From positions 68,936 through 132,935 of the forward strand of contig CAVWXH010000005.1 of the NCBI GenBank assembly GCA_963758915.1: a DNA stretch of 64,000 bases, read 5' to 3'. Made by a program: the position numbers and the translations under genes. The notes under the pieces were generated by a model. The model ran no database searches. It saw nothing but the letters and a program-made list of their open reading frames with translations, and had not been told where the DNA came from. How positions within the stretch are numbered: position 1 is the stretch's first letter; each line of letters starts with the position of its first letter. This document shows positions 23,874 through 61,582 of the stretch, one piece after another. The DNA is from an uncultured Methanomicrobiales archaeon. GTDB taxonomy: Archaea; Halobacteriota; Methanomicrobia; Methanomicrobiales; Methanospirillaceae.

Positions 23874-25154
23874 ATGGAAATACGGTATTTTCTGATAGCA
23901 ATATTCATGGTTTTTTTAATGGCGCCGGCAATGGCCGGGACATTGTATATCTCCGATGGTCCGACGTTCACCGCAACGGTTGCAGGGACTAACCAGTTTT
24001 CACCGGGTAAAGATCTGCAACTCCCGGTTAAAATTGAAAACAGCGGCCTTAACCGCCTTAAATTTGTGCAAACCGGCTATATCGAACGGGACGACCTACC
24101 CAATACAGCGAAATTTGTTACTGCATCACTTTCACCCGGGGGCTCCCCGGTGATAATAAAATCTGATTCACAGGTAATGGGAGATCTTCCCGGTGGAAAA
24201 AGTGTCCAGGTGATCTATACTATCAAAATTCCGAAACAGGCAGCTGCTGGTGAATACTTACTGCCCCTGACCATCAGCTACCAGTTCCTTGCAGGAGCTG
24301 AGCAGAGTGCCGGCGATCTCATCGAGTACCAGTACAAGACAAAGAGTGTTGTGGTAACCCTGCCCCTGACAATCGAGCCGAACGTATTCCTTGACGTGTC
24401 ACCTGTAACCAGCGGGGGGCTGAACGTCGGTACCGAGGGATATCTCGATCTGAATATTACGAACAGCGGGGGGGAGGATGCACATGCTGCCACCATAAAA
24501 ATTTTGAGAAGTGGCAACAGCCCGGTAACACCAACTGACAGCAGCGTTTTTATTGGAGACTTCCCTGCCGGGAATTCAACGGTTGGCAGGTTTAAAGTGT
24601 CAGTCTCCCGCGATGCGGAAGCACAGGAGTACCCGGTTGATGTTATTGCCGTGTATAAAAATCATGAAGGGGACACGGTTACATCTGCCCCGGTCACCGT
24701 GGGGATCCCGGTGAATGGAAGGATCGGGTTTGACGTCGTGAACGCGGACTCGGATATGAGTGCCGGTAAGAAAAAGGTTATTGAAGTCACCTACCGTAAT
24801 TCGGGTGATGTTACAGCCTACAGCGCCCAGGCACGGATCAGTGTTGTGGACCCCTTCACCAGTAACGATGATTCTGCCTACCTTGGGGATATTGCCCCTG
24901 GAAAAACCGCTGTTGCGCGATATGAAGTAGGCGTGAGTTCCGATGCAGTAGCAAAAGACTATGCGTTCGATTCCGAGGTGAGGTACCGTGACTCTCTTGA
25001 CAACAGCCAGATATCAGATCCCGTGAAGGTGCCGGTCACCGTTGTCGAGGCAACGGCCATGGATGGCGTAATGGCCAACCTGGTATTGATAGTCGCAGGG
25101 ATCGTAGTGGTCGGAGCGGCAGGGTATTATCTGCTTGTAATGCGAAAGAAATAA
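23874..25154 (+). CDS. COG1361 S-layer-domain-like cell-surface protein
   Basis: Signal peptide, Ig-like repeats (DPFTSNDDSAYLGDIAPG, DSEVRYRD), C-terminal TM plus basic tail. Confidence 0.82.
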   Translation: MEIRYFLIAIFMVFLMAPAMAGTLYISDGPTFTATVAGTNQFSPGKDLQLPVKIENSGLNRLKFVQTGYIERDDLPNTAKFVTASLSPGGSPVIIKSDSQVMGDLPGGKSVQVIYTIKIPKQAAAGEYLLPLTISYQFLAGAEQSAGDLIEYQYKTKSVVVTLPLTIEPNVFLDVSPVTSGGLNVGTEGYLDLNITNSGGEDAHAATIKILRSGNSPVTPTDSSVFIGDFPAGNSTVGRFKVSVSRDAEAQEYPVDVIAVYKNHEGDTVTSAPVTVGIPVNGRIGFDVVNADSDMSAGKKKVIEVTYRNSGDVTAYSAQARISVVDPFTSNDDSAYLGDIAPGKTAVARYEVGVSSDAVAKDYAFDSEVRYRDSLDNSQISDPVKVPVTVVEATAMDGVMANLVLIVAGIVVVGAAGYYLLVMRKK

Positions 25155-25278: not shown

Positions 25279-26400
25279 TTAAGGTAAGAGTGATAAACCG
25301 GACTGGTACGCCATTACCTTATTGAAGGCTGTAATCGTTCCCTGGGTAGATGCTGTTTCAGAATAGATAAGGTCCTCGGACTTTGAGGAATTTGTGCCAC
25401 GGGCTTCCTGAATATGCGCCTTAATATATGCCATTGTCGAGCCACTTGCAGGGATTTGCCCCTGTGGTGTACCATATGGCTTGACATTTATTCCATAATT
25501 CAGGACAATGGGTGCAGTTGCGTCAGTGCCGATAAACCTGTCATTTGCACTAGATGTGACTGAACCGATGGTAAGGTCGTACTTACTACCAGCCTGGACG
25601 ATGTTGCAGTATGCCGGAATCACATTTGTTGTTGCAGCTGCAAATGGGCAGAGAATCTTATCGGAGAGGGTACCCCAGGTGCTCGAACCATCAAGCATGA
25701 GGTTTTCAGATCCTATTGCATTGCCACCGTTATCGGTTGCAACATAGGTAAGACCCGTTTCAGCCTTGATGTTCGACTCTCCCGTTACCTTGTTCCCGGT
25801 ATTGATTATCAGGCTCTTTGTGAACACTGTATGTCCCGACTGTGCAATGACATCCGCATCATAAGCTGATGTATAGGTTGCCATTTCAGGATCCAGAGGT
25901 GATTGGGCTAATATTATGTGATTATTATCCCCTGTTGTTCCAAATCCTCCAGTTAAATCATATTTGATCCCTGGCAGGATTGATGTACCCCTTAACTCAT
26001 CATAACGTCTCCAATTTGGAGAACTAACTGCTGGTTGCCAATGATTAAATGTATAAGTCCCAGGGGTAAGAATTGTATCGAGAATCCCCCCGTTTCCATT
26101 CCCACCAGCGGCGGGGACCTGACCTTGGCGTAACCCGGCAGTTCCCGATGAAACTGCTACATCCCTGCCTAAAATGTCAATTAAATGTAGTTCTGCATAA
26201 TCCTTGCTCCTGACCGGTGTAGTGATCTGCCATGTGACATCAGAAGTGGTCGTTACCAACCCGACAACGTCAATGGTGGTTGTAATATCAAACTGCTGGA
26301 TCTCCGGCGTTGCGTTGATACCCGGATCCGCAATCACTGCATAGGTAAATATAAGGAATGCTGACAGGGCAAGAATGCCCCAAAATCTCATATTATCCAT
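25279..26400 (-). CDS. Secreted beta-rich protein, putative sheath (MspA-like) family, with ~106-aa insert
   Basis: Signal peptide; LCPF...PAYCNIVQAGSKYDLT motif shared with the paralogues at 39.8-42 kb. Family name is from recollection of the Methanospirillum sheath protein and is not verified. Confidence 0.7.
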   Translation of the reverse strand: MDNMRFWGILALSAFLIFTYAVIADPGINATPEIQQFDITTTIDVVGLVTTTSDVTWQITTPVRSKDYAELHLIDILGRDVAVSSGTAGLRQGQVPAAGGNGNGGILDTILTPGTYTFNHWQPAVSSPNWRRYDELRGTSILPGIKYDLTGGFGTTGDNNHIILAQSPLDPEMATYTSAYDADVIAQSGHTVFTKSLIINTGNKVTGESNIKAETGLTYVATDNGGNAIGSENLMLDGSSTWGTLSDKILCPFAAATTNVIPAYCNIVQAGSKYDLTIGSVTSSANDRFIGTDATAPIVLNYGINVKPYGTPQGQIPASGSTMAYIKAHIQEARGTNSSKSEDLIYSETASTQGTITAFNKVMAYQSGLSLLP

Positions 26401-26850
26401 TTTTATGGTAAAACACCTCCATAAACTGAAAAATCCCCCCCCTATGAGTAGATTATCAGTTGTTGAATGTTATGATTAAGAATCCATAAAATTTTCGATA
26501 ATATTAGTTCATTCACTTCATCTCTCAAAGTTCTATGATATCAGAGTTAAGCGTGTATTCCAAATTATTATGAATTTCCTGATTACTCTGGAATCGAAAA
26601 TACAAAAACTCTTGTTTGAGTTATGATCGACAAGATAAAATTAATTCATATTATAATTGGAGATCTTCTGCTGGCTTTGCCAGAAAGGAGAAGAATTATT
26701 TACCTCCCGGGATCGATTCTTAATAGTATTATTACAGGCCATCAACAGGCAAATTCCTGCAGACCGAAGGATAGTGAAGCATATTTTCGTTGTGTGGCAG
26801 TTGAAAAATGAGTCATAATAACATGGTCAACAGGGGTTTATCTGGTTAAA

Positions 26851-27564
26851 ATGAAAGAAAAAGTGATGTTTACATGGGATGGGCCCCTGCCGGAACCGCA
26901 GGTGCGGATGGCAGAAGACCTCATGCAGGTGCTGGCTGACAGGAACTGCACCATGAAAGGCCCGGCTTATTTTATGTACCGGGACCTCGCCCGCTCGAAT
27001 GTGGACAGGGAATGGCTCCGGGACCAGGAACTCAGGTACGATGTTACCGTTATCCCCCCGTCAGTCCTGTGTGGGGAATATGTAAAAACGAAGGGGCATT
27101 ATCATCCCGATAATCATCATGGCGTCGGATACCCGGAAATTTATGAGATTATTGAAGGGTCAGCCGAGTATCTTCTCCAGGACAAAGCGCTTTCTGATGC
27201 GGTATGTATCGCTGGAGGGAAGGGGGATATTATTCTGATTCCACCCGGTTATGGTCATGTTACGATCAATCCTGGCAATACATCCCTTGTCATGGCGAAT
27301 ATTGTCTCTACTGCATTCGAAAGCATTTACGCAGATTATGAAGACCTCCGGGGGGCAGTGTATTACCGGATGGAACGCCAGGGTTATGTGAAAAACCCGG
27401 AGTATCCAAAACATCCACGACTGCGGCATATCAAAAAATGCAATGCTGCAGGATTTCCAACCATCCATAACCGGTCCCTGTATGGAATAATCGGTGAGAA
27501 AGACGCGCTCCGGTTCCTGAATTACCCTGAACAATTCCGGTTCGATGATGTTGTAAAGGGTTAA
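26851..27564 (+). CDS. Cupin-type (archaeal) glucose-6-phosphate isomerase
   Basis: YFMYRD, KTKGHYH, YPEIYE and IPPGYGHVTINP motifs. Confidence 0.88.
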   Translation: MKEKVMFTWDGPLPEPQVRMAEDLMQVLADRNCTMKGPAYFMYRDLARSNVDREWLRDQELRYDVTVIPPSVLCGEYVKTKGHYHPDNHHGVGYPEIYEIIEGSAEYLLQDKALSDAVCIAGGKGDIILIPPGYGHVTINPGNTSLVMANIVSTAFESIYADYEDLRGAVYYRMERQGYVKNPEYPKHPRLRHIKKCNAAGFPTIHNRSLYGIIGEKDALRFLNYPEQFRFDDVVKG

Positions 27565-28300
27565 AAAAGAAGGCTCGGGGTCGTTCTTTTGTGCCCGCTT
27601 TTTTTAACCATTGCCAGCACCTTTTCCTGGACAGGGGTTGTTGCCTGTTCCAGTCGTTTGCCTCGAGCGCGACCAGTGCCCCGTCGATTTCAGCATATGT
27701 CAGGCCGATCTCGTCCTCATCTTTCTGGCCATGCCAGAGTCCGGCTGAGGGGGCCTTCGTAATAATAGTATCAGGGACCCCGATTTCCCTGGCCGCTTCG
27801 TAGACCCCGCCTTTATAAAGGTGGAGGATAGGCTGGAAGTCTGCGGCATTATCGCCGAATTTTGTCGTATAACCAAGCATATACTCGGTGCGGTTTGATG
27901 TGCCACAGACAAGGCGGTTGTCCCGGTTCGCGTAATAATAGAGTATTGCCATCCGGGTGCGTGCCATAAGATTTCCAAGGATATACGAAGTCCCGGTAAA
28001 GCCCGGCAATTTCCGGTATGTGTCAAGGAAGGGTTCAATTGATATAATTTCGTGCCTCATCCCGAGTTCAAGGCACAGATCCGCCGCGTCCCTGATATCC
28101 GCATCACTCGTTATTGCGCTTGGCAGCGTGAGACCAAGCACGTTCTCCCCGCTCAAAGCTTTGCAGCACATTGCGGCTGCAACCGCGGAGTCCACCCCTC
28201 CGCTGACCCCGATGACCACACCGGCCGCCCCGCTGTTCCAGACGGTAAACCTGATCATCTGTTCAATACGGCCAAGGCCACACCCGCAGTCAACAGTCAT
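27561..28300 (-). CDS. nadE: NH3-dependent NAD+ synthetase (apparent frameshift near 27650)
   Basis: GVSGGVDSA, GNLMARTRM, GYTTKFGD and KAPSAGLW motifs. The usual C-terminus (EKVLAMVKKSGHKR) is in another frame ending at 27561. Confidence 0.9.
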
Positions 28301-28315
28301 GCAGACATCACATAT

Positions 28316-30034
28316 CTAACAGAGGCGGATAAATTTTTTCAACTGGTGCAGGTCGCCCGTGGCAATCAGTGCATCCCCCTCCAGGATGAGTTCTCCAGGC
28401 GCAGGTTTAACGATTGCCCTGTTCTCTCCCTCGAGCCCGATAATCAGGGAACCACTTTTTTGTTCAACCCAGCCGACGGTCATACCGGCGTGCTTCATCA
28501 TGTGCTTCCTTATCACCTTGTGCCCGTTTGGCAGGTCAAGGATCACGTGTACGCTGTCGGAGAGCACGACACGGGCAATTACCTGTCCACCGATAGTAGG
28601 CAGCAGGGCGACATAATCCGCACCCGCCCGGTAGAGTTTGTCAACCGAAGCAGGATCATTGGCACGGACTAAAATGCGAAGTGAAGGGTTCATATCACGT
28701 GCCATTAGCGTGGTGAAGATATTCACATTGTCATCGTTGAGCGCGATAATGCAGTACCGTGCCTCAGATATCCGGGCATCACGGAGTACCTCCTCGTCCT
28801 CTGCATTTCCCTCCACTCCAAGGACCCCCTGTGGTTTCTGGTCAATAACAACACAGGAAACACCCAGAGCGGTCATATCGTGGTATGCCGACCTCCCCAC
28901 ATCCCCAAACCCTGCAATGACGGCAAAATTCTCTCCGGAAAGCCCGGAAATAAATTCGTTCTCTACCAGCTCTTTCACCCTGTCTGCCCTTCCAAGCAGG
29001 AAGACCCCGCTTGAGAGGTCAATTACTTCATCGTCCCCCGGGTGGAAGACAAATTTCCCGCTCCGGGCCATGAACAGGGTATAAAACCCGTATTTTTCGT
29101 AAAGTCCAATTTCCTTTAATGTTTTGCCCGCAGACCTCGAACCGGGCATTACAGGAATATGGACTACTTTCAATACACTGTCATAGCTGCCTGAACTATC
29201 AAGGATTGCATGGTCTATACCTGATGTATCAAGGGCCCCGGGGTGGTGGGCAGTCAGCTCGGCGTGCCGTGCCAGGATCCTGCCGGTGATATGCTTCGGT
29301 GAGAGGACATACTCTGCACCGGCATGGTGAAGGTAACGGTCAAAAGACAGCTTGTCGACGACGGCGACAATCTTCCCCCGTGTCAACTCCCGAATACCAA
29401 GAATGATTGTTGCCGCTGTGCGCTCGTCTTCGCATATTATGACGGTGCCTGAATTTTTTATCCAGATATTTGACCAGGTCGACGGGTTATTGTAATCTCC
29501 CCAGACCGCGTAAACACTTTTCCGGTAGAGCCTGGCTGCTTCCTGGGCAGCCTTTTCATCCTTGTCAAGGATGACGATATCGTTTTCAGCTATCATCAGG
29601 CTCTCAACGAGCGCCTTTGTAAGCTCCCCATGCCCGACGATGATTATATGGTTTTTTAGCTCATGAGGTGTCCGCTGGGGTGGCGAAGCCCTGAGAATGG
29701 CTGTCAGGTATGGGGCGATGAGGAGCGGGACAATCATGAAGATCAGGGCAATCCCCGTAATCATCATAATGATTGCAAGGAACACCGTGTACTGGTTCTG
29801 GAATGGCAGGAGCTCGCCATACCCCACGGTGGTGATCGTTTCCACCACAAAAAGGAGTGATGAGGGCCAGGATATTGGCTTCTGTTCGAGAACCGGGTAG
29901 AGGTATTTGAACAAAACGGTATATGCCACCATCTGGAGAAAGAAAAGGACAAAATAAAGTCCTATCTTTACTTCCGGTGAACTGTGGACCAGCCTCCAGA
30001 ATAATCCCCGCGTGTCACCCATACCCTGGAGCAC
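28316..30034 (-). CDS. Potassium channel with two RCK (TrkA-N/C) modules
   Basis: Filter TTVGYGE; Rossmann-like IIVGHGEL and IAGFGDVG; AGADYV repeats. Confidence 0.88.
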   Translation of the reverse strand: MLQGMGDTRGLFWRLVHSSPEVKIGLYFVLFFLQMVAYTVLFKYLYPVLEQKPISWPSSLLFVVETITTVGYGELLPFQNQYTVFLAIIMMITGIALIFMIVPLLIAPYLTAILRASPPQRTPHELKNHIIIVGHGELTKALVESLMIAENDIVILDKDEKAAQEAARLYRKSVYAVWGDYNNPSTWSNIWIKNSGTVIICEDERTAATIILGIRELTRGKIVAVVDKLSFDRYLHHAGAEYVLSPKHITGRILARHAELTAHHPGALDTSGIDHAILDSSGSYDSVLKVVHIPVMPGSRSAGKTLKEIGLYEKYGFYTLFMARSGKFVFHPGDDEVIDLSSGVFLLGRADRVKELVENEFISGLSGENFAVIAGFGDVGRSAYHDMTALGVSCVVIDQKPQGVLGVEGNAEDEEVLRDARISEARYCIIALNDDNVNIFTTLMARDMNPSLRILVRANDPASVDKLYRAGADYVALLPTIGGQVIARVVLSDSVHVILDLPNGHKVIRKHMMKHAGMTVGWVEQKSGSLIIGLEGENRAIVKPAPGELILEGDALIATGDLHQLKKFIRLC

Positions 30035-30079
30035 CTCTCTTTCCAGGATGCGTTATAACAATATTTGAATTAGGTATTC

Positions 30080-30862
30080 TCATGAGACACGGTCCCTGAA
30101 TTGTTTGACCTGTTCCCCGATATTGACGAGTGCATAGGGGATACCCGGGTGCCTGCTGTACAACCGTTCCAGCAGTGTACTGACCGGGTCCTGTAATCGG
30201 GTATCGTTCTCTGCCTTTTCATAACAACCATTCAGAAAAATCTGCGTATACAGGTGCAGTTCCTTCCCTGGTATATGCATAAAAGGCCTGGCGATCTGCA
30301 CCCGCTTCAGGGTTTTTGTTGCATAACCCGATTTATGGCGCATATTCCCGGAAATGGCATTCCGGAGTACCCATTCAGCATGGTCTTCAAGTGTGTACCC
30401 CAGGACAAGCATTTCGGACTTCAGTTGTTCTGCTTTGTGCTTCAGCTTGCACTCTGTCGATGCATGGGCTGGAAACGGGGATTCATTTGTTGCACAAAAC
30501 CTGTTCCCCTGTTGAATTTCTGCATTGTCATCCGGAACAATAAACCAGGGAATACCCAATGATTCAGTTATTGCCTTCGCATTCTCCATCGCAACCGGAT
30601 CGTTATGGTTTATTGTTACGGCAACCAGGCTGATATCTGTCCGTTCTCCAACAAGGGTATGCATAAAATCCAGGAGCGCACAGCTTGCAGGTCCCCCGGA
30701 AAGTGCAATGGCATACCTCGTTCCGGGGATAAGCCAGAGGTTCTTCCGCACAGTTTTTTTCGCTTTATGATGAAGGTCTTGTCTGAAGTGCTGCTGGCAC
30801 AGGTGCAGGCCGGAATACTCCTGGAAAATAACCCCGGGTCTTCCACATCTGCTACACCCCAT
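30080..30862 (-). CDS. TtuA/Ncs6-like PP-loop protein, degenerate
   Basis: N-terminal Zn finger (CSRC...LCQQHF), altered PP-loop LSGGPAS, LGYTLEDHA and RPFMHIP. Confidence 0.7.
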   Translation of the reverse strand: MGCSRCGRPGVIFQEYSGLHLCQQHFRQDLHHKAKKTVRKNLWLIPGTRYAIALSGGPASCALLDFMHTLVGERTDISLVAVTINHNDPVAMENAKAITESLGIPWFIVPDDNAEIQQGNRFCATNESPFPAHASTECKLKHKAEQLKSEMLVLGYTLEDHAEWVLRNAISGNMRHKSGYATKTLKRVQIARPFMHIPGKELHLYTQIFLNGCYEKAENDTRLQDPVSTLLERLYSRHPGIPYALVNIGEQVKQFRDRVS

Positions 30863-30914
30863 ACTGCTACCAGATCAACCTTTATCATCCAAATAGATAA
30901 AATGTGTAGCACAG

Positions 30915-31772
30915 ATGGCAATTTCCGCCGATCATATCAGGACACTCCATAAGTACGAGATCGCTGTACTGCAGGCACTTGAACGGCTTATGAGAAATTA
31001 CGAGTGGGTCCCGCTCGAAGTACTGGTAAGGGCGCTAGGGCTGGCAGAATCAGAGGTATCGTTCCGCATAAGCCGGCTGATGCAGAAAGGGATGGTGAGG
31101 TATAACGCTGTCCCGTACGACGGGTACTCCCTGGTTTTCATGGGGTATGATGCGCTTGCACTTCGGACCCTTACGAAAAAAGGCACAATCCAGGCACTTG
31201 GGTGCATGATCGGGGTTGGTAAGGAGTCGGTGGTGTATGAAGGGCTGGGTCTCGGGTGTGTGGCACTCAAGTTCCACCACGTAGGGCAGCGGTCTTTCCA
31301 GTCCGTGCGCCTCAACCGTGAATATAAACCCGGACAGACCCATTCGCCATGGATTTTTACCTCGCGGCAGTCCGCAGAACGGGAATTTCTTGCCCTGAAG
31401 ACACTTCACCCGGGTGTAAAAGTACCGCTCCCGGTCGATCAGAACCGGCATATTGTGGTGATGGAGTACATTCCGGGTGTAAACCTCAATAACGCAAAGG
31501 TTGAAGAGCCGGAAGAATTTCTTAATGAAATAATCGGGGAGGTCAGGAAGGCGTATAAACTTGGAGTAATCCATGCTGATTTTTCTGAATTCAATATTAT
31601 GGTCAATGAGCGTGGCTGTACCCTGATTGACTGGCCTCAGTGGATGGAGACTGACCACCCCAATGCAGATACGATTCTCCGGCGGGATATCAATAATATC
31701 CTCACCTACTTCTTACGGAAGTACCAGTTGTCATACGATATCGAGGACACGATGAGATGCGTGACCAGCTGA
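30915..31772 (+). CDS. rio2: RIO2 serine/threonine kinase
   Basis: N-terminal wHTH; GVGKESVVY, IHADFSEFN and IDWPQ motifs. Confidence 0.92.
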   Translation: MAISADHIRTLHKYEIAVLQALERLMRNYEWVPLEVLVRALGLAESEVSFRISRLMQKGMVRYNAVPYDGYSLVFMGYDALALRTLTKKGTIQALGCMIGVGKESVVYEGLGLGCVALKFHHVGQRSFQSVRLNREYKPGQTHSPWIFTSRQSAEREFLALKTLHPGVKVPLPVDQNRHIVVMEYIPGVNLNNAKVEEPEEFLNEIIGEVRKAYKLGVIHADFSEFNIMVNERGCTLIDWPQWMETDHPNADTILRRDINNILTYFLRKYQLSYDIEDTMRCVTS

Positions 31773-33721
31773 AGGTATTCGGGATTGATATCATCCGGGG
31801 CTCTGTCAGGTCAAAGTCCCGGAGACCTCTCTATGCACTGGTAAGGCTTCAGGGTGGCCAGGTCATTTCCGAAGACGGGGTCTCGTCCTTCCGGCTCTTT
31901 CGGATACTTTCACAGGAACAACCGGATATCCTCGCCGTGGACAGCCTCCAGGAGGTCTCCACTGACCAGCACGAGTTATTTGCATTCATGCAGTCCCTGC
32001 CCCCGGCCACCCGCCTCGTCCAGGTGACCGGCGGTGACCGGCGGGAATCCCTCGTTAAAGTAGCAAGCCGGTACAATATCAGTTTTAACCGGCTCGATCC
32101 GTTTGACGAGGCCCGGACTATTGCGAGGGTGGCGTCCCTCGGTGCAGGGGCCGAAGTAATCGCCTTTGAAAACAGCTCTGACGTAATTGTAACGCGTAAC
32201 CGGTCCCCGGGTAAAGGTGGGTGGAGCCAGAACCGGTACGTGCGAAAGATCCACGGCGGGGTCCTGCAAAGGGCCCGCGAGATCGAAATGAACCTCGTTG
32301 CGGCGGGCCTGAAGTATGAAAAAAAGGAAGTAAAGGCGTTTGGCGGATGCAGCAAAGCCTCGTTCCGTGTATTTGCCCCGCGTGACCAGGTACCTGTATC
32401 CACCTACCGGGGGGCAGATGTCCAGGTTCGGATAAGCGGGAGGCGACTGGACCGGATCATGTTCAGGCCCCTCTCGGTCCGCCCGAAATTTATTATTGTT
32501 GGGATGGACCCCGGCACGACCACCGCCATTGCCGCCCTTGACCTTGAGGGAAACCTGCTCCACCTGAGCAGTTCCCGGCAGACCTCCCTGTCTGATGTCA
32601 TTGAATCGCTTTACAAGGTTGGAAAACCAGTTGTCGTGGCGACTGATGTCCGTGATATGCCGTTTTCTGTTGAAAAGGTAAGGCGTGCCTTCAATGCGGT
32701 CGCCTATGCACCACGCCTTGACGTGAGCGTGGATACGAAACTGGAGTATACGCAGCCGTACAAGTACATGAATGATCATGAACGGGACGCGTTATCAGCT
32801 GCTCTCGAAGCATACCGGCACTATAACCACAAGTTTCAGCATGTCCTGAAACGTGTACCCCCTGGCCAGGACCTTGATGAGGTAAGGGCTGGCATGATCC
32901 GTGGGCACTCACTGGAACAGGTGATTGGAGAACTGAGTGTTGCCCCACAACCCTCAAAAGTTGAGGGCCCCGTTGTTCAGGCTGACAGGAAATCTGATGA
33001 GAGGGTCAGGGTCCTCGATGGGACGGTAAAACGCCTGCGCACGTATGTCCAGGAATTACAGGAAGAGATTAAGGGAAAAGAACGTGAAATCATCAGGTTC
33101 CAGTCCCGGATACGGAAAATCCGGTCAATTCATGAGAAAGATATCATAAAAGATGCAGAAATTGCAAAAAGAGACTTAACTATACAGACGCTGAAAAAGA
33201 GGCTCCGTCGTGAAGAACGATCGAACCGGAACCAGAAAAAGAAGATCGAGAGACAGAACAGGATTGATGAACTGGCAGGAAGCCCGGATTCGATCCCGGT
33301 CAAAATACTTGGCGCTTTTACCAGGGACGCGGTCAGGGCGCTGTCAGATGACCTGGGGGTTACTGAGGGGGACGTCATTTATGTGCTCCGGACAGACGGG
33401 TGGGGAAGGAGTGTCGTCCGGGAGATAGGCGGGATGGGTGTAAAAGCAGTCATCACGGGTCCGGGACTTACTTCGCATGCTGACCCCCAGCTCCAGGCGG
33501 CCTGCATGGAACAGGACATTCCCCTTCTTGACGGCGAAGATCTGCCAATTCTTATCAGGGGAAAGATTGGAAGTGCCGGGAAAATCCCTTTTGAAACCTC
33601 GTTGAAAGTCTGGCAGGAAAAACACCAGGAATTTGAGAACGAGCAGAATGCAAGGCGCATCGAGGGAATTTTCCGGGATTACCAGACCGCACGGGGAAAG
33701 GAGATGAGGAAAAGTGGATGA
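31757..33721 (+). CDS. DUF460 domain protein (RNase H-like fold plus coiled coil)
   Basis: GKGGWSQNRY, VGMDPGTT and HERDALSAA motifs. Confidence 0.88.
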   Translation: MRDQLKVFGIDIIRGSVRSKSRRPLYALVRLQGGQVISEDGVSSFRLFRILSQEQPDILAVDSLQEVSTDQHELFAFMQSLPPATRLVQVTGGDRRESLVKVASRYNISFNRLDPFDEARTIARVASLGAGAEVIAFENSSDVIVTRNRSPGKGGWSQNRYVRKIHGGVLQRAREIEMNLVAAGLKYEKKEVKAFGGCSKASFRVFAPRDQVPVSTYRGADVQVRISGRRLDRIMFRPLSVRPKFIIVGMDPGTTTAIAALDLEGNLLHLSSSRQTSLSDVIESLYKVGKPVVVATDVRDMPFSVEKVRRAFNAVAYAPRLDVSVDTKLEYTQPYKYMNDHERDALSAALEAYRHYNHKFQHVLKRVPPGQDLDEVRAGMIRGHSLEQVIGELSVAPQPSKVEGPVVQADRKSDERVRVLDGTVKRLRTYVQELQEEIKGKEREIIRFQSRIRKIRSIHEKDIIKDAEIAKRDLTIQTLKKRLRREERSNRNQKKKIERQNRIDELAGSPDSIPVKILGAFTRDAVRALSDDLGVTEGDVIYVLRTDGWGRSVVREIGGMGVKAVITGPGLTSHADPQLQAACMEQDIPLLDGEDLPILIRGKIGSAGKIPFETSLKVWQEKHQEFENEQNARRIEGIFRDYQTARGKEMRKSG

Positions 33722-34581
33722 ACGGGCCCTGTTGCAGGAAGTGTATGCAATTATTGGTAAGGAGCACTGTCTCGATGATTGTGCAGTAATCCCCTGCGGC
33801 GGACAGACTCCTTGTTGCTACGACTGACATGCTCCACGAAACAACTGATTTTCCTGCAGGGATAACGGACTGGCAGATTGGATGGATGTCTGCAGCGGTA
33901 ACGCTCTCTGATATCGCGTCTATGGGTGCGACCCCTGCCATCCTCCTCCTGGCGGTAGGGCTTGATGACCCGTCAAGGCTCGGAGAAATTCTCAAAGGTG
34001 CCAGGGACTGTTGTTCAGAAGCTGGCGGATACATTGCCGGTGGCGATATCGATCACCATAGTGAACTGACGATTGTCAGCAGTGGTATAGGTATGGTAGC
34101 ACCTGGCCATATTGTGAGGCGCTCCGGGGCCAGGGTGGGGGATCTCATCTGCGTGACCGGGGTCCTTGGACGTGCCCAGGCAGCACTCAACGGGTATCGG
34201 GAGTATGACAAAGCACTCATGGAGCCCCGGGCAAGGGTCCGGGAAGGTGAAGTCCTCGGCAGGACTGGTGCGACGTCGATGATGGACATCAGTGACGGCC
34301 TCTCTATCTCGCTCTATGACCTGCTCGAGGCAAACTCCTGCGGGTACTCCATTAACCGGGAAAAAATACCAACCCCTGCCGGAGTCCCCCCAGGCGAGGC
34401 AATAACCCTGGCTCTCTATGGCGGTGGGGACTTTGAGTTATTATTCACAGTCCCCCGTGACTGGGTAGCACCGGCAGGTTTTTTCTATTCTGTTATTGGA
34501 ACTGTCATCAGGGACCATTCTGTACTTCTTGATGGAATTATGATGGAACGGAAAGGGTACCAACATTCATGGAATGGATAA
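33714..34581 (+). CDS. thiL: Thiamine-monophosphate kinase (apparent +1 frameshift near 33810)
   Basis: GTG start gives MDERALL...LDDCAV; the next frame has TTDMLHE, SDIASMG, GGD, MMDISDGL and GGGDFELLF. Confidence 0.9.
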
Positions 34582-34726
34582 CCTGAAGCATTCAGAAACC
34601 CCTGTTAATGTATAAGACATGTAAAATATGGATTTTAGGGCTCGAAAAGAAATGATTTTTCTCCATCTGACTAAAACCATGTAACCTGCTCTGCATAACG
34701 ATGCAACTCATTTCACATTCAGGTAA

Positions 34727-36714
34727 TTATCCGCTGAAGTGAGGCCAGATGATCCGGATCGCCTCAACTCTGCCATAGTATGCATCGGCATTATTCGGGT
34801 CAATATCGAGGGCTGTGTCATATGCTTTAATTGCTGCATCGATATAGCCCTGTTTATACAGGAGATATCCCTTATTTGTCCAAGCCATTCCATTATTCGG
34901 ATCAATCTGGATGACTTTTTCAAACACCTTCATTGCCTTGTCATACTGGCCACTTCGTACAAGTGCGATCCCTTTATAATTCAGCGAATCGGTGTTGTTC
35001 GGTTCGATGGAAATGGCCTTATCATAGGCCCGTATGGCTCCCGGATAGTTTTCAAGTGCCATCAGTGCAAATGCCTTGTTGGTGAGCGCTATGGTATTAT
35101 TCGGTTCAGCATCAAGGGCACGGTCGTATGCGATGATTGCCTCATCAATCCGTTCGAGCTGGAACAGGGCATAGCCCTTGTTCATCCATGCGACGGTGTT
35201 ATTTGGCTGGGACTTGAGGATTTTGTCATAGGCATGGACCGATTCTTCTTCCCGGCCAAGGCTCTTGAGTGCAGATACCTTGTATATCCAGGCCATGGTA
35301 TTTTTCGGGTCTGTTTTCAATGCCTGATCGTAGGCAATAACTGCTTCCTCGTAGTTCTTCATGTTATGGAGAGCGTAACCCTTGTTGAACCAGGTGACAC
35401 TGACATCCGGGGCCAGTTGAAGTGCTTTATTGAAGGATTTTACTGCCTGCTCAAATTGGCCACGCCTTGTCTCAGCAGTCCCCTTGTTAGTCCACGCTAT
35501 CGTGTTACCAGGGTCAAGACTGATGGCCCGTTCTGCTGACCTGACAGCCTCTCCATAGTCTCCTATCTGGTTATAAATCATTGATTTATAGCCCCATACT
35601 ACTGGACAGGTTAGGCTCAATCTTCAGGGCGTGTTCGTACGCGGCCATGGCCTCATCGTACTTTCCAACCGCACTCAACGCATATCCCTTGTTGGTCCAT
35701 GACACGGCAATATCCGGAGAAAGGTTAATACCCCTGTCATAGGCCTGTAATTGCCTCAGTGTATTTCCCAAGGCTGTTCAGTGCAAACCCCTTATTGTTC
35801 CATGCCTGCGTATTATTCTGGTCCAGGCTGATTGCACGGTCTGCAGACTGGTTTGCCTCTGAAAATTTTCCCGATGCTGTTCAGTGCATATGCCCTGTAA
35901 CCCCATGCATCAGTGTTATCCGGTGAAATTGAGAGTGCACGATCATATGCCCCTACCGCATCCTCATACCTGCCCGCACTATTAAAAATAAAACCAATAG
36001 AACTCCAGGTCACAGAGTTATTAGGCTCGGTAGCGAGGGCATTATTGTACGCGGCCATGGCGTCGTTGTACCTGCCAAGACCTTTTAAAATGTCCCCCCT
36101 GGCGTTCCATATGCCGGCAGGGTTGTAACCTGCCTTCAGGGCTGCGTCATACGCATTGAACGCATCCAGGTTCCGTCCCTGCATAGAAAGGACATCACCT
36201 TTTAATTTGTACGCAGATGAGAGCCCGGGATTTATTGAGATTGCCGTATCATAAGCAGCAATACTCTCATTAAGCCTTCCCAATGACCTTAAAGAATTTC
36301 CTTTTGCCTCTGCGGCAACGACCATCGCAGGATCTGCTGCCAGTGCATTGTCATAACTGATAATTGATTCATTAAAATTTTTCAGGGAGACGAGTGCATC
36401 TCCTTTCCCTTTCCATGCTGCGGCATTTTTTGGGTTGATCTTCAGTGAAGTATCAAACGATGCCAGTGCATCGCTATACCTGCCGGTTTTGAGAAGGACC
36501 TCTCCTCTTCCAGATCCATGCGACTGGCATCAGCAGGGTGTTTTATGGTGAGATTTTCATAGATTGCAAGGGATTCGTTGTATTTTCCCGCATCATAGAA
36601 TAGCTTTGCCTGTTGGATCCCTTCAGAACCCGAAGAATCCTGATTATATATGCAACCGGAAAAAAACGGGGTGATCAAAAGGATTAAGATCACCAGTACC
36701 CAACAGGATTTCAT
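34727..36714 (-). CDS. TPR-repeat lipoprotein, split by several frameshifts
   Basis: Lipobox FFSGC. Continuous 34-aa TPR repeats across ORF pieces 36442-36714, 35813-36325, 35586-35771 and 34727-35620. Confidence 0.8.
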
Positions 36715-36931
36715 AATAAATTCTCCATGTAAACCCTAATAAAGATAGGTCATCTGACGAAGATGAAATTTCAGGCAAAATGAGATTTTTTATCAAAACC
36801 GGGTTGATTGTTGTTTTGTCTTCCTCACGTGTGCGCCCACGACTGTCAGTATACTGAGAAAGTTTTTAAGTCAAGAGACTGAAATTTAGAATATAGTAGA
36901 TAATGGTAGAGCGACCATTTGGGAGGAAAAA

Positions 36932-37292
36932 ATGAAATTCAATAAAACTTGTCAGGATGTATTGTGGCACTCGTTGTGCTTATTGCGTTTATTGCGCCTG
37001 TTTCGGCCGCACCTTATTTTGGGTACAGCCAGACCGGGAGTAAGTATTCAGGGAACCAGGTATCATTGACATCAGCCCTGGGATCGACAACGACAGGCAC
37101 TTCTGGCAGCCCGAACCTGGGATATTCAGTTCGTCGTTAAGGGTTATGGGACAAAAGCCGACCTATGGTGATGTAAGTGCCTATTCCAACTTCTTCAGCC
37201 AGTCCCAGGGCCAGAAGTTCAGTTATTCCGAATCCTCGAGTGCCTCGGGAATAATTTATTCGTTCAGTAAAATAATTTCAGTCACCCTTTAA
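36932..37292 (+). CDS. Small secreted protein resembling the C-terminal domain of the sheath-like family (frameshifted)
   Basis: GGAGG SD, signal peptide (APVSA), then QTGSKYSG...LGYSV..KGYG..PTYGDVSAY...FSYSESSSASGIIYSFSK. Confidence 0.6.
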
Positions 37293-37724
37293 CTCAATAT
37301 TATTATTTTATTTTCTTGAAGTTTTTCCGGCCAGAATTGGGCTGGATGCATTTATATTGCGGTTTTAAGAACATTCAGAGAGGCATCAAAAAATTGAATT
37401 CCCGAAAATTGTTGTTAAAATTTACAGTTTGCGATTGGATTTCTGATTGAAAAGTTTCTGGTGTTCCAGTTTGGATCTCGCCTGTTTCTCTCCTGAATCT
37501 CCTGAATTATATTGTATCATGCAATGAATGACAATAATGCATGATAGTATCATGGGTATAGTCTTTTTGGTAATGACACCGGGACGAAAACGTACCAATC
37601 AGGTGGTGATTTTCTTAAATAACACTCATTGGTTATAACTTTTGAAAATCCTGGTTACATTAATTTTATATACTTCTATAGCTTAATTTCGATGCTTACA
37701 ACTTTATCGATCAAGGTGGCGAAG

Positions 37725-38532
37725 ATGAAGACAAAAGTATCGATAGGTGTGATCATCATAGCGATGGTGATCCTTATTGCAGTCTCTGGCTCAGCCATGG
37801 CTGCTCGTCCTGTACCGGCTGGAAATGAAACTTCTGTTATTACTGTGCAGACTTCAGCGAAAGTCATTGGTAATTTCCAGGCACATACTGACCTTGTTCT
37901 CCAGCAGAGCACAGGTGACCTTGTTCCCCCGCTCGCGGATGGTGAACAGGTATCACTGGTTGCGTATTCTGAGAACACAATGGCAATCAATGGTGAGACA
38001 GACTACTCAAAGAACACGAACATTAATACCGGTGACGTGGTAAACGGGCAGGAGAATGTCCAGACTGACAGGATTATCACGTTCGATGCCGGAGACGGCG
38101 GCCGGATGGTCTCAAGTGAAAACGTGCTGGTCCAGACGGTTGCAAACGAGGCTACGACTGCATCGGGTTGCTGCCCATGGGGAAGCACGACCAATGCTAC
38201 ATTACCCGCTGAGTGCGAGACGGTCCAGGCAGGCAGTAAGTTGGACGTATTCTGAGGTCTCTGCAAGTTCCAGCAGTGGTGTACGGGCAATTGCTGATAC
38301 GCCGGGAACAACGGTCTCGCTCGATTATTCGATCGACGCCCATGGCATTAACCAGACTCCGGGCAGCATGGAAAATGCAGCAATCGGAAGTGCTACGGCC
38401 TACGTCGATGGAAAGATTACGCAGGGTAACGGCACCGCACCGGGCACCAACATGGAATACCATGATGTGACATCGGTTGACGGACTCTTTGACCTGTCGA
38501 AGGATGTGAGTTACTCATCGGCTCCGAATTAA
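37725..38532 (+). CDS. Divergent sheath-like family paralogue (frameshift near 38250)
   Basis: Signal peptide; PPLADGE, GGRMVSSEN and CCPWG...PAECETVQAGSKLD align with the family's LCPF...PAYCNIIQAGSKYD. Confidence 0.72.
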
Positions 38533-38557
38533 CCAAAACTATCCATACCTGAGTAAA

Positions 38558-38592
38558 GGGAAGATCCAGTCAAAATCTTCCCCTATTTTTTT
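38558..38592 (+). terminator. Hairpin plus T-tract terminator
   Basis: GGGAAGAT...ATCTTCCC followed by T7. Confidence 0.65.
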
Positions 38593-39050
38593 GGATTATT
38601 AGTACTGGAAGGTGCTGTTTTAGTTATTCCAGGCACTATAGTAGTCCTGCTTTATCAGGGTTTTCAGCAGATTCCGGTTTATGCGGGTTAAACAATTGCC
38701 AGGTGGATTATTTTACGATTCGCCACCATTGTGCATTATCACCTGCAATACGAATACCACAATAGTTTTCATCGGGTGTGCACGTTCCTTACATTATGCC
38801 GACTTCACCGTCATATCGTTCGGAAAGAGATCAATGGCCCTGTTGATATCAGGGGTATTTATTACCGGCCTGCGGGAGAAGGAGCTGATACTAATGCTTC
38901 CCTGAAGGTTTGGATTACCAAATTTTTTATCACTATCCGGGTTTAACGTAATAGACCGCCACATGTGAGGTCCACATTTCCATTCAGTACCATGGCACTA
39001 TTCAGTCCTTGGTTTTAGGTGGGGCCCCATTCATTCCATTGTTAAATTTT

Positions 39051-39397
39051 TTTCTCTGCTGATGTCCTTGCGTTATGTAAAAAAAGGGAGTGTATAGGCA
39101 GGATGGGTTACCCCCCTCCCTGCCCCACCCCCATTAAGATATTCTTCGGGCAGGGTTTCCCGAAGGCCCATTAAATTCAGATTATTGGGGGATAGTCCCT
39201 TATCATAACCGGGGTTGCCTAAGCGGCGGGCCATGAGCCCCGGGAGCGTTACGAAACTTTGGAATTACAAATCTGCAAGATAGATTGAGAGGATTTCCCA
39301 TGAAAATAACAAAACGGACCCCAATAAATGGAAATTTTGAACGGGCTTTTTCATGGTCGGGTGTGAACTTCCCGTTCATGTGTGTTTCAATAAAGCG
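39051..39397 (+). mobile_element. MITE copy 4 (diverged, left end degenerate)
   Basis: Core CCCTCCCTGCCCCACCCCCATTAAGATATTCTTCGGGCAGGG is identical to copy 1; right end GTTTCAATAAAGCG. Confidence 0.78.
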
Positions 39398-39847
39398 TGC
39401 TATGAGCCTCCGGGCTCATAGATGACCTTTAAAAGGTAGTATCTATCATGATTCCCCATGTGTATGAAAATGAGCCATAAGCGTTTATAAGCAAGGTTAT
39501 AGATTTCCCGTTTCACCTAATAAACTCTAACCGTACCGGGGCTTCGCCCCTGGAATAATACCCACTGTGACACACCTATCGATTAGGAATAGTGACTTGA
39601 TTATACCAGATAGGACAATTTTCTCAGGTTCTCCCATAGGTGCCACAAAAAAAGCCATTAAAAGCCCGCCATTGGTTTCAGGTTAACGGATGTTACTGCT
39701 CCTTTGACAGTGATGATTGGGGTTAGCTGGATATATTTCCAAAAGCACTCTGAAGAAAAGAACAATACAATTAAACTTTCTCTAAAAGAACAAGGGGATG
39801 TTAGAGGATAAATCCTCCATTATCTCCCTATTCCTGGTTCAGCAACC

Positions 39848-40669
39848 TCAGAGTAATGACTTACCGGACTGGTAAGCGATTGTCTTGGTGAAGGAGCTGA
39901 TTGTACCCTGGACGCTTGAGGTCTCGGAGTAGGTCAGGTCTTCAGCCTTTGCCTGAGCCGTTTGCACGTGCTTCCTGGATGTGTGCCTTTACGTAGGCCA
40001 TTGCCGAGCCAATTGCGGGGATCTGTCCCTGTGATGTGCCGTATGGCTTGACATTGATGTTGTAGTTCAGGACGACTGGTGCGGTTGCATCAGTGCCGAC
40101 GAACCTCTCGTTCGCTGCGGTTGTAACTGATCCAACGGTCAGGTCGTACTTGCTGCCTGCCTGGATGATGTTACAGTACGCTGGAATTGTGTCTACTGGG
40201 TATGCTGAGAACGGACAGAGCATGCGGTCGCTTGCTGCGGTGTAGTTGCCTGCGCCGTCGAGCATGATGTTCTCTGAACCGACGATGTTGCCACCGTCTG
40301 CAGTTGCAATGAAGGTAACTGCGGTGTCAGCCTTTACGTTGGACTGGGAAATAACCTTGTTGCGGGTGTCGATTACCATTGTCTTGACAAAGGTGGTCGA
40401 TCCAGCCTGTGCTACGGTGCTTGCATCGTAGGCAGTGGTGTACTGAACTTCCTGGTCCGCAAGTGGCGGAGTCGATTCATTGACCATTGTTTGACAGAGT
40501 CCATGCGAGCCCTGCATTGTCCATTACGAGTCCGTCTGCAATGATTGCAGTTGAAGTTGTGATTGTCTGTGATTCAGGGGCTGCATGGTACGACCTGGTC
40601 GGCCATTACAACACCAGTGAGTGCAATCAGCATTGCGAGTGCAATGACGATAACGCCTGTTGTCTTCAT
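39848..40669 (-). CDS. Sheath-like secreted protein, tandem copy A (frameshifts)
   Basis: MKTTGVIVIALAMLIALTGVVMADQ...QYTTAYDAS...LCPFSAYPVDTIPAYCNIIQAGSKYDLT...AYQSGKSLL*; strong AGGAGG SD. Confidence 0.8.
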
Positions 40670-40689
40670 TTAATTTCCTCCTACATTTT

Positions 40690-40748
40690 ATGCTGATACT
40701 CTCAGCATCAACTAATGATTTTTAGCTACTGATACATAATAACCTTTC
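40690..40748 (-). promoter_or_regulatory. BRE/TATA (GAAAGGTTATTATG) and 5'-UTR hairpin of copy A; same at 42027-42084 for copy B
   Basis: 7-bp stem ATGCTGA-N5-TCAGCAT about 25 nt downstream of the TATA-like box and just before the SD. Confidence 0.6.
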
Positions 40749-41162
40749 TCTCTGAATCCTCTAAAGAAGACGGTATTCCAAGAGAAAGGGTTCAATTAAC
40801 CGTTCATTTGAAGCATGTAACCGGTCGGGTTATACCCATCTAATCATTCCAAGATTGTGAGACCTACCAGCACGGTACACTATTCAAAGTTCCATCGAAT
40901 TCGAGCAGTGACCTGATCATACCAGATGGACATTTCCTCAGGATTCTCCCGAAGTGCGACAAAAAAGGCCATTAAAAGCTGCCATTGGTTACATACGAAT
41001 GGATGTTATTGCCTTTGACAGTTGATCATTCGGGTTACTAGAAGATATAAACAATAACATTCTGAAAAAAAAGAACAATACAATTAGATTTTTCTCTAAA
41101 AGAACAAGGGGATGATTAGAGGATAAATCCTCCATTATCTCCCTATTCCTGGTTCAGCAACT

Positions 41163-42006
41163 TCAGAGTAATGACTTACCGGACTGGTAAGCAATTGTCT
41201 TGGTGAAGGAGCTGATTACTCCGCTGGACGCATGAGGATCTCGGAGTAGGTCAGGTCTTCGTTCTTGCCATTGATGTCGATGACCGCCCTCGTTGATGCA
41301 TCGTTCCTGCCTTCCTGGATGTGTGCCTTTACGTATGCCGATTGCCGAGCCAATTGCCGGGATCTGTCCCTGTGATGTGCCGTATGGCTTGACATTGATG
41401 CGTAGTTCAGGACGACTGGTGCGGTTGCATCAGTGCCGACGAACCTCTCGTTCGCTGCGGTTGTAACTGATCCAACGGTCAGGTCGTACTTGCTGCCTGC
41501 CTGGATGATGTTACAGTACGCTGGAATGGTGTCTACTGGGTATGCTGAGAACGGACAGAGCATGCGGTCGCTTGCTGCGGTGTAGTTGCCTGCGCCGTCG
41601 AGCATGATGTTCTCTGAACCGACGATGTTGCCACCGTCTGCAGTTGCAATGAAGGTAACTGCGGTGTCAGCCTTTACGTTGGACTGGGAAATAACCTTGT
41701 TGCGGGTGTCGATTGCCATTGTCTTTACAAAGGTGGTCTGACCCTGCCTGTGCTACGGTGCTTGCATCGTAGGCGGTGGTGTACTGAACTTCCTGGTCTG
41801 CGAGTGGCGGGGCAGTTCATTGCCTTGTTGGTCAGAGTCCATGCGAGCCCTGCATTGTCCATTACGAGTCCGTCTGCAATGATTGCAGTTGAAGTTGTGA
41901 TTGTCTGTGTCTCAGGGGTTGCTGGAACGACCTGGTCGGCCATTACAACACCAGTGAGTGCAATCAGCATTGCGAGTGCAATGACGATAACGCCTGTTGT
42001 CTTCAT
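41163..42006 (-). CDS. Sheath-like secreted protein, tandem copy B (frameshifts)
   Basis: Near-identical to copy A except at two loops. Confidence 0.8.
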
Positions 42007-58881: not shown

Positions 58882-59505
58882 ATGACTGGGAAAACAGAAA
58901 ACTTTGCTAAAAAAACTGAAGAACAAAATATTGAGAACGCCAAGGGGGAGATCGCCAGAAGTACGCGGCCTGGTAGCGACCCCCAGGTCAGGCAATATGC
59001 ATCGATCCTCCTTGGTAAGTTAAAAGAGTCGGATGGGGTAGAGCCCCTCCTCATGGCTCTCCGTGACCCCGAGAAAAAAGTCCGGGAACAGGCCGCAAAA
59101 GCACTTGGTGAAATCGGTGGTCCGTCCGTGGATCCCCTGATACTTCTATTGGATGACCCGGACTGGAAAGTGAGATATCGTGCAGCTGAGGCGCTTGAAA
59201 TAACCGGATCGAACAAAGCCGTTCCATTTCTTATCAATTCGCTTGATGATCCAAAAGATCATGTTCGGTACATGGCAGCGAAGGCGCTTGGGACATTAGG
59301 GTCCGGAGATGCCGAGAAAGCACTCATTGCCAGGCTTGGGGATGAAAATGAATTCGTACGCAGGAGTGTGGCAACGGCTCTCGGAAAAACCGGTGGCATT
59401 GCCGCGAAGGAAGCGCTAAAAAAATCCCTGGCCAAAGAACCATCGGGAGAGGTCTGCGATGTTATAGGATCTGCGTTACAACTTCTCGAAAAAAAGGGAG
59501 TGTGA
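58882..59505 (+). CDS. HEAT/PBS-lyase repeat protein
   Basis: Repeated L.D....VR..AA.ALG units. Confidence 0.88.
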   Translation: MTGKTENFAKKTEEQNIENAKGEIARSTRPGSDPQVRQYASILLGKLKESDGVEPLLMALRDPEKKVREQAAKALGEIGGPSVDPLILLLDDPDWKVRYRAAEALEITGSNKAVPFLINSLDDPKDHVRYMAAKALGTLGSGDAEKALIARLGDENEFVRRSVATALGKTGGIAAKEALKKSLAKEPSGEVCDVIGSALQLLEKKGV

Positions 59506-61541: not shown

Positions 61542-61582
61542 CACACTATTTCTTGAAGTGATGATATAAATAAGATGATACA

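Follow-up and report, generated by a model that had tools for sequence, protein, structure and literature searches.

Does the 64,000-nucleotide stretch of archaeal DNA analysed here (the window) encode the cell sheath of its host, and which of its genes are likely to take part in building one? The window is positions 68,936 to 132,935 of contig CAVWXH010000005.1 (assembly GCA_963758915.1), and all coordinates below are counted from its first letter. A first-pass annotation, made from the DNA letters, had picked out five genes for secreted β-rich proteins and suggested that they form an MspA-like sheath system. The major sheath protein of Methanospirillum hungatei JF-1 (WP_011449234.1, Mhun_2271) was named MspA by Christensen et al. 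(2018) and SH by Wang et al. (2023), and the second name is used here. We conclude that the window probably carries the main cell-sheath gene module of an uncultured Methanoregulaceae methanogen, which would then be a sheath-forming organism. Judged by their sequences, its SH genes are members of the Methanolinea-type SH family, a kind that has already been described. The SH genes alone add little, the family, its copy numbers and its distribution being already in print; what may help is that in Methanolinea-type lineages the main SH array has fixed neighbours, a tetratricopeptide repeat (TPR) lipoprotein and a one-third subunit, which are testable candidates for assembly factors.

SH genes in the window

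The host genome comprises 18 contigs and 2.38 Mb and is 94% complete. Its NrpR shares 99% identity with the NrpR of a metagenome-assembled genome (MAG) named 'uncultured Methanomicrobiales archaeon' and 96% with the one from a MAG labelled Methanoregulaceae. The SH genes of the window, together with the TPR gene, are as follows.

25279..26400, minus strand: SH long form, intact, 373 amino acids (aa), an uninterrupted open reading frame (ORF) of 373 codons
34727..36714, minus strand: TPR lipoprotein, in three ORF pieces (297 + 170 + 90 aa), with Pfam TPR hits
36932..37292, plus strand: mini-SH, corresponding to SH's C-terminal third behind a signal peptide, split between two or three frames
37725..38532, plus strand: divergent SH paralogue of the CCPW...PAECE type, with one frame break near 38250-38275
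39848..40669, minus strand: SH short form, tandem copy A, in four frame pieces with three breaks
41163..42006, minus strand: SH short form, tandem copy B, with at least three frame breaks

All five SH genes of the first-pass annotation were found where it had placed them, by ORFs, by tblastn and by a profile of 60 family members. Its call for frameshift repair was justified, only 25279-26400 being uninterrupted among the five. When the 373-aa SH was searched against the window with tblastn, it matched 39948-40466 at 63% identity (E 1e-73), 41240-41749 at 51% (E 2e-53) and 37962-38249 at 36% (E 3e-13), and these paralogue matches are far above chance. The profile divides copy A (minus strand) into pieces at 40577-40666, 40483-40590, 39951-40481 and 39851-39970, copy B (minus strand) into pieces at 41800-42000, 41721-41810, 41240-41746 and 41166-41402, and the divergent SH (plus strand) into 37740-38249 and 38275-38523. 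The DNA of the tandem copies A and B is 95% identical, and this similarity takes in some 130 nt of upstream and some 150 nt of downstream flank.

The four long genes all carry the cysteine-pair motif that had been described for them. It reads ILCPF...IPAYCNIVQAGSKYDL in the 373-aa SH, MLCPF...IPAYCNIIQAGSKYDL in copies A and B, and GCCPW...LPAECETVQAGSKLDV in the divergent SH, and all 60 aligned homologues keep its two cysteines and its P, F, N, Q, G and D unchanged. The 373-aa protein is laid out as a signal peptide, two N-terminal strands, an insert at about residues 63-167 and about ten C-terminal strands, with the motif at Cys251/Cys265; the variable insert is presumed to be an outward 'cap'. 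At the N-terminus of the SH proteins is a hydrophobic helix (residues 2-19 and 3-16 in two structural models), followed by a conserved A-D, and the signal peptide of the short form ends in VMA, immediately before DQ. A C-terminal hydrophobic stretch is absent from the translations read by eye, and no S-layer domain (Pfam, NCBIfam) and no membrane anchor was found in the SH proteins. The earlier description of a signal peptide without a membrane anchor therefore agrees with what we see, both features having been judged visually, on the translations and on the N-terminal helix seen in both models.

Relationship to described sheath proteins

The definition of SH proteins is a structural one, resting on likeness to the sheath protein of M. 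hungatei (Medvedeva, Borrel and Gribaldo 2024, ISME J, PMC11576556). According to that survey they occur in Methanolinea, UBA9949 and UBA467, at 5 to 31 copies per genome, and Methanoregula has none. Its supplement provides four hidden Markov models (HMMs), of which 'Methanolinea_sheath' has 272 positions and 180 sequences. Nodes 149-199 of this model align without a gap to residues 247-297 of the 373-aa SH, over 51 consecutive positions: the HMM consensus is eslicpFassdteviPafcniveaG SsvdltvgsvtTsaserfvaasadvp and the window has DKILCPFAAATTNVIPAYCNIVQAG SKYDLTIGSVTSSANDRFIGTDATAP. The matching positions include both cysteines, as well as P, F, P, N, G, S, D, L, T, G, S, V, T, R, F and P.

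In a protein collection, 289 homologues of the 373-aa SH were found at E<=1e-3, those with names being 'hypothetical' and from Methanoregulaceae. Their lengths fall into a short class of about 271-290 aa and a long class of about 340-460 aa. The published SH proteins of UBA9949 and UBA467 are mostly 266-293 aa long, others being 138-337 aa (PMC11576556); the short class of the window family (271-288 aa) is within this range, and so fits Methanolinea-type SH. A HMMER search of 1.84 billion cluster representatives gave 481 matches to the family. Pfam, NCBIfam and all PDB chain sequences returned only chance-level rows for the SH proteins, as expected for the Methanolinea-type family, and ESM Atlas yielded neither a usable hit nor a model. 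The M. hungatei sheath structure is deposited as EMDB maps, with no PDB model (PMC10593813).

The resemblance to sheath proteins that the first-pass annotation pointed to is supported for Methanolinea-type SH, with whose published HMM the 373-aa SH is in register over the 51 nodes; no sequence similarity to Methanospirillum was detected, as described below. The name MspA is ambiguous, since the Methanothrix 'MspA' is argued to have been misidentified (PMC11576556). The protein of Methanothrix thermoacetophila (ABK14853.1, 60.9-kDa, Dueholm et al. 2015) is regarded there as a secondary component with few homologues. The further remark that the genetics of such systems is little described has been outdated since 2024 (PMC11576556).

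Predicted structures

The AlphaFold2 model of the 373-aa SH has a predicted local distance difference test score (pLDDT) of 63. It consists of a signal helix, two strands, a disordered region at 63-167 and about ten further long strands. The model for the 274-aa short-form orthologue from the closest relative (locus L012, at L012:5803-6627) is better, with a pLDDT of 85.5 and a pTM (predicted template modelling score) of 0.81 from 65 aligned sequences. It is made up solely of long β-hairpins, with 13 strand elements, and its sole weak region lies between the two cysteines. In the published description, the SH core consists of a pair of β-sheets with six antiparallel strands apiece, to which a variable cap is added (PMC11576556). 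A structure search found no solved or viral predicted structure resembling either the 373-aa or the 274-aa model. A two-copy prediction of self-association for residues 26-373 gave no answer (scores 0.00 and 0.00), and counts neither way.

Copy number and distribution

The host genome gave 48 matches to the SH profile, which group into about 18 genes at about 15 places. One SH-bearing relative has 64 matches, nearly all without stops, and two MAGs labelled Methanoregula have none. Profile matches were found in 24 of 201 sampled Methanomicrobiales genomes. In the host's own family 22 of 43 genomes are SH-positive, and the other five families have 0/20, 0/12, 1/39, 0/43 and 0/43. The presence of SH is all-or-none for each coded genus: 8/8, 5/5, 2/2, 2/2 and several 1/1, against 0/15, 0/2 and 0/2. 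This distribution mirrors the published one, with SH in Methanolinea and none in Methanoregula (PMC11576556), although, because genus codes are not names, the SH-less genera can be equated with Methanoregula only by inference.

A conserved module around the SH array

Seventeen loci from other genomes were mapped using the proteins of the window and of relatives, five as related loci and twelve chosen for having SH and TPR on one contig. In all 17 of these a TPR protein lies beside an array of one to eight SH genes, and within each stretch the gene order is TtuA, RIO kinase, DUF460, thiL, the module, methyltransferase, NAC, PUA and RecJ-like. Between thiL and the methyltransferase gene come the divergent SH where there is one, the TPR lipoprotein and then the SH array. 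In the window, the module occupies 33.8-42.0 kb, bordered by the following two genes.

33708..34581, plus strand: thiL (thiamine-monophosphate kinase), left border, with an intact 288-aa orthologue in L044
42496..43221, minus strand: S-adenosylmethionine-dependent methyltransferase (Pfam), right border, followed by NAC, PUA and RecJ-like

The divergent SH type is within the module in 12 of the 17 loci, and an intact orthologue (L044:10312-11136) matches the family alignment with an hhalign probability of 99.2% (E 8e-20). Divergent SH, mini-SH and TPR form a block that in some lineages is inverted, its components remaining adjacent. In a less biased set, at least 13 of 20 SH-bearing genomes have TPR and SH on the same contig within a few kb. 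SH-bearing Methanoregulaceae share a canonical SH module, and in the window it is the region at 33.8-42.0 kb. The conserved divergent SH, mini-SH and TPR lipoprotein lend support to the earlier suggestion that accessory factors and variant subunits are encoded at the locus along with the major subunits. The published survey noted housekeeping and S-layer-like genes near SH genes, and reported that genomic context gave no hint of assembly proteins (PMC11576556).

Different genera have the block in both orientations and in two orders relative to thiL (L044, L030 and L033 versus the window, L009, L132 and L130/L131/L136). The module could not be treated as a simple insertion: in five SH-less genomes thiL and the methyltransferase gene are far apart (0.4-1.4 Mb in four single-contig genomes, and on different contigs in the fifth), which makes an empty-site comparison impossible.

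The first-pass annotation had listed the gene at 36932-37292 as a short relative of the others, and it is a real one. Intact mini-SH orthologues of 116-136 aa are found in at least 8 of the 17 mapped loci, and their alignment matches the SH alignment over 108 columns (SH residues 152-273) with an hhalign probability of 99.8% (E 2e-28). In four of eight loci the mature mini-SH starts right at the second-cysteine motif of SH. On this alignment, the mini-SH is a predicted secreted one-third subunit.

The N-terminus of the TPR protein, MKSCWVLVILILLITPFFSGC, has a lipobox-like cysteine. In 14 of 14 relatives' loci that were checked, its orthologue is a single ORF (652-679 aa) whose N-terminus is hydrophobic and closes with such a cysteine (L-S-G-C, F-S-G-C or L-A-A-C). 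Full-length orthologues (E<=1e-85, ORF of about 650-710 aa) were found in 9 of 14 SH-bearing genera and in none of 5 SH-less genera, where the best matches are giant TPR ORFs of 2,000-4,600 aa, or weak. This lipoprotein is a candidate for a sheath assembly or anchoring factor. The word TPR occurs nowhere in the main text of PMC11576556; Table S5 of that paper does list a tetratricopeptide repeat protein (representative WP_011450064.1) as enriched in sheathed Methanomicrobiales, 15 of 18 against 0 of 51, with no signal peptide flagged, which may or may not be the TPR lipoprotein of the module. A literature search joining sheath, tetratricopeptide, methanogen and lipoprotein produced nothing relevant by title and abstract.

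Two uses of the TPR gene as a guide were unsuccessful. The prediction that genera with no strong TPR orthologue would have no SH failed in all three genera tested (g41, g43 and g45, with genomes 73-86% complete). As a neighbour leading to the Methanospirillum sheath protein, it gave only a weak 372-aa hit in one of three MAGs.

Frame breaks: assembly error or decay

At least 10-11 frame breaks are crowded into 33.8-42.0 kb. There is one in thiL, whose first 35 or so codons (33708-33830) are in another frame, with the break near 33800 in a short G-rich stretch; the TPR gene is split into three ORFs; the mini-SH has one or two breaks, the divergent SH one, copy A three and copy B at least three. 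The three in copy A are all in variable loops, and copy B has several single-base indels in conserved stretches. The module genes are intact in L044, a short-read MAG (with an intact SH orthologue at L044:5788-6642), and the orthologue of the tandem copies in L012 is one intact 274-aa gene. Near-identical contigs from four public runs, belonging to four studies, were compared with the window. Relative to it, the contigs of all four runs have one base missing at each of 39952, 40472 and 40474, and indel differences occur at 41340 in two of the four and at 41399 in three. Over the mini-SH, two comparisons counted gaps and substitutions at 5 and 10, and at 5 and 7. When the window is aligned with L012, gaps number 2 in the 2,040 nt of the housekeeping flank, compared with 30 and 39 in about 1.4 kb for the SH copies.

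We consider that the breaks are probably for the most part assembly errors rather than decay, because thiL is broken too, nonsense substitutions are absent and the gap ratio is odd. It is possible, though clearly less probable, that they are real, and that the sheath module is decaying, its TPR and mini-SH genes and the majority of its SH copies having become pseudogenes, in a lineage that is losing its sheath as has been inferred for Methanoregula. Such decay would account for the crowding of the breaks into 33.8-42.0 kb, which is not what random sequencing error predicts; no split gene was detected among the other window ORFs scanned with Pfam (this was not a systematic test). It would also agree with the confinement of the copy A breaks to variable loops, where real indels occur, and with the fragmentation of about 14 of the 18 or so SH copies in the host, when in 23 other SH-bearing genomes nearly all of the matches listed have no internal stop. 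On the other hand, a housekeeping gene at the edge of the segment, thiL, is also broken. The SH pieces are almost identical to the intact L012 orthologue and have no in-frame nonsense substitutions, the indel-to-substitution ratio over the mini-SH (5:10 and 5:7) is odd for natural coding variation, and the single-base differences seen in all four runs fall exactly at the break sites. In a repeat-rich assembly of 18 contigs, mixed strains or paralogues would spoil the consensus. Contigs of other populations cannot alone part consensus error from strain-specific lesions. The case calls for caution more generally, in that surface-protein families in genomes from long-read metagenomes can look 'decayed' through possible assembly breaks.

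A proposed mechanism

By analogy with M. hungatei, the following scheme can be proposed. SH proteins would leave the cell by the Sec route, as monomers with a flat body of about 12-14 long antiparallel β-strands. These could join strand edge to strand edge to give continuous cross-β rings, and the rings would stack into hoops, and the hoops into a tube enclosing the cells. On either side of the low-confidence loop is one of the two invariant cysteines; these might either staple this loop internally or form the ring-to-ring disulfides that have been proposed for Methanospirillum. The variable loops, and the insert of about 100 residues in the long form, would face outwards as the 'cap'. The tandem short-form genes are likely to encode the bulk subunits, and the divergent SH and mini-SH may be minor subunits; being a partial subunit, the mini-SH could start or end a row. 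The membrane-anchored TPR lipoprotein would hold or guide the subunits at the cell surface. What the data show is family membership, fold class, copy number, distribution and conserved gene order; that a sheath is formed in this organism, and what part the cysteines, mini-SH and TPR lipoprotein play in it, we infer, for the last two from their architecture and conserved position only.

We tentatively extend this to the suggestion, which we regard as possible but less than even in likelihood, that the SH array, the lipid-anchored TPR protein, the divergent SH and the mini-SH constitute one dedicated sheath-assembly module, in which the TPR protein is the long-sought factor on the membrane side, receiving exported subunits, and the mini-SH starts or stops rows and so sets hoop size. 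How hoops are started, sized, inserted and linked to cell division is treated as an open question in the 2023 and 2024 sheath papers. If the suggestion is true, the module would supply the first concrete candidates for assembly, the 2024 survey having seen none in genomic context (PMC11576556).

Alternative explanations

Several observations weigh against the view that the window holds the main sheath module of its host. The M. hungatei protein is the sole proven sheath subunit, Methanolinea-type SH being known from genes alone. The family profile matches none of three Methanospirillum MAGs, even at E<=10, and, with no similarity to the Methanospirillum sequence detectable here, it is the structure comparison of PMC11576556 that links the family to the proven sheath protein. 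The published HMM was compared by eye and over 51 of its 272 nodes, and the AlphaFold2 output was read as secondary structure, not as the sheet topology of a core with two sheets of six. About 4 of the 18 or so SH genes of the host genome are uninterrupted, and one of the five in the window. Methanomicrobiales are reported to hold a single SH cluster (PMC11576556), from which the dispersal of copies over about 15 places departs. A strong TPR orthologue was not found, with one query, in 5 of the 14 SH-bearing genera (g6, g13, g41, g43 and g45), three of which are represented by genomes 73-86% complete. Finally, the adjacency of TPR and SH may simply have been inherited as synteny: the housekeeping flanks are equally conserved, and related genomes are not independent.

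Some of these same points would suit a different product. The β-rich extracellular product of the SH family could be something other than a sheath, for instance a second surface layer, a fibre or an adhesin matrix, the likeness to Methanospirillum then being one of amyloid-like architecture only. This would be in keeping with the missing sequence link to the three Methanospirillum MAGs, with the roughly 15 places at which SH copies lie, unlike the published single cluster, and with the sheath literature consulted, whose pages show no experimental work on Methanolinea-type proteins. We consider it unlikely, given that two BLASTP homologues of the M. hungatei protein, at 31% identity, are reported from Methanolinea tarda (Christensen et al. 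2018, PMC6242892), and that the family is missing from the genus-level groups without SH. Within M. hungatei, homologues of its sheath protein range from 111 to 370 aa, and the same study notes the shortest of these (PMC6242892). Another possible origin is viral, the genes being provirus-borne SH-like proteins by which viruses weaken the sheath of the host. A Methanospirillum provirus protein, vir387_00084 (Supplementary Data 1 of PMC11576556), does have the N-terminal, cysteine-pair and C-terminal motifs of the family, by eye only. Conserved housekeeping genes flank SH in the same order at 17 of 17 mapped loci, capsid, terminase and integrase domains are absent among the 39 window ORFs scanned, and the SH family is all-or-none by genus, all of which makes a provirus very improbable. 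Methanolinea itself reportedly grows as sheathed filaments, as Imachi and colleagues are said to have described in 2008, which also speaks for a sheath rather than another extracellular structure.

To the eye, vir387_00084 looks Methanolinea-type rather than Methanospirillum-type, which hints at virus-borne exchange of SH between lineages.

Neighbouring genes and a dispersed repeat

Two further features lie close to SH genes.

23874..25154, plus strand: S-layer-like protein, 426 aa, with NPCBM_assoc/CARDB domains (Pfam), a signal peptide and a C-terminal membrane anchor
39096..39397, strand not assigned: dispersed repeat of about 300 nt, between the divergent SH and tandem copy A

The S-layer-like gene directly adjoins the gene for the 373-aa SH, and an orthologue lies a few kb from TtuA in 7 of the 17 loci (L129, L131, L132, L134, L139, L140 and L025), with 52-69% identity in at least six of them. 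Elsewhere in the host genome, G000:C9:61276-61818 encodes a transmembrane protein of DsbD type (40.6 bits, which exceeds the Pfam cut-off); DsbD and a partner with a thioredoxin domain are reported as enriched in sheathed lineages, DsbD not being sheath-specific (PMC11576556). The ORF at 54565-55287 has a PKD domain. Table S5 of PMC11576556 includes a PKD-domain protein enriched in sheathed Methanomicrobiales, the likeness being by domain name only.

Other copies of the dispersed repeat in the window are at 831-1134 (plus), 4589-4881 (minus) and 7096-7298 (plus), and BLASTN gave 134 hits in the 2.38-Mb genome at 70-100% identity, often partial (1-154, 1-202 or 195-305). In four freshwater or sediment metagenome runs, the contig depth of the repeat is 50-100x that of its flanks. 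It is not supported as an RNA gene, with no Rfam or tRNA hit and folding no better than that of shuffled sequences (z -0.24), nor as a miniature inverted-repeat transposable element, terminal inverted repeats being absent. Nor is it supported as a marker of SH loci: it is near 4 of the 15 or so SH places, which by a rough estimate is not clearly above chance. The repeat is probably outside the SH system.

The locus at L012:5400-11600, whose flanks are 95% identical, contains a single SH gene, two repeat copies and then genes for a HEAT-repeat protein and methionyl-tRNA synthetase; the corresponding HEAT-repeat and synthetase genes of the window are at 58882-61637. L012 thus has one SH copy where the window has the tandem pair. 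The arrangement points to about 19 kb having been inverted or otherwise rearranged, at 39.4-58.9 kb of the window relative to L012, with a copy of the repeat at one junction. The shares of the stretch found in public runs are small (best 0.33), so that no habitat is named from them.

Comparison with known systems

In outline, the module is similar to curli (CsgA/CsgB, with the lipoprotein CsgG) and Fap. These also have a major subunit that is exported by Sec and polymerises outside the cell into a cross-β structure, and the genes next to it encode a lipoprotein and a paralogue that is shorter or variant. There is no homology, archaea lack an outer membrane, and a mini-SH acting as nucleator or terminator and a TPR protein acting as scaffold would be analogies. 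Among the viral SH-like proteins (PMC11576556), the motifs of vir387_00084 are alike by eye, and the window genes are chromosomal and without viral neighbours.

Like the SH proteins described here, the M. hungatei sheath protein is secreted, β-rich and amyloid-like, occurs in multiple copies with short members, and has cysteines that have been proposed to cross-link rings. Support from mass spectrometry and electron cryotomography belongs to the Methanospirillum protein only, the window SH being known from genes. The two-sheet core is reported to be common to M. hungatei and Methanolinea-type SH, and the cap differs, consisting of six helices plus a sheet in Methanospirillum and inferred to be a five-stranded sheet in Methanolinea (PMC11576556).

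The closest match is Methanolinea-type SH itself, as described in PMC11576556. The lineage of the window is uncultured and apparently outside the genome table of that paper, and its SH genes are at about 15 places, in a conserved context, with most copies frame-broken as assembled. In all other respects compared the two are the same: the consensus is in register over the 51 nodes compared, and the length classes, the signal peptide, the multi-copy tandem genes, the distribution among genera and the housekeeping and S-layer-like neighbours agree.

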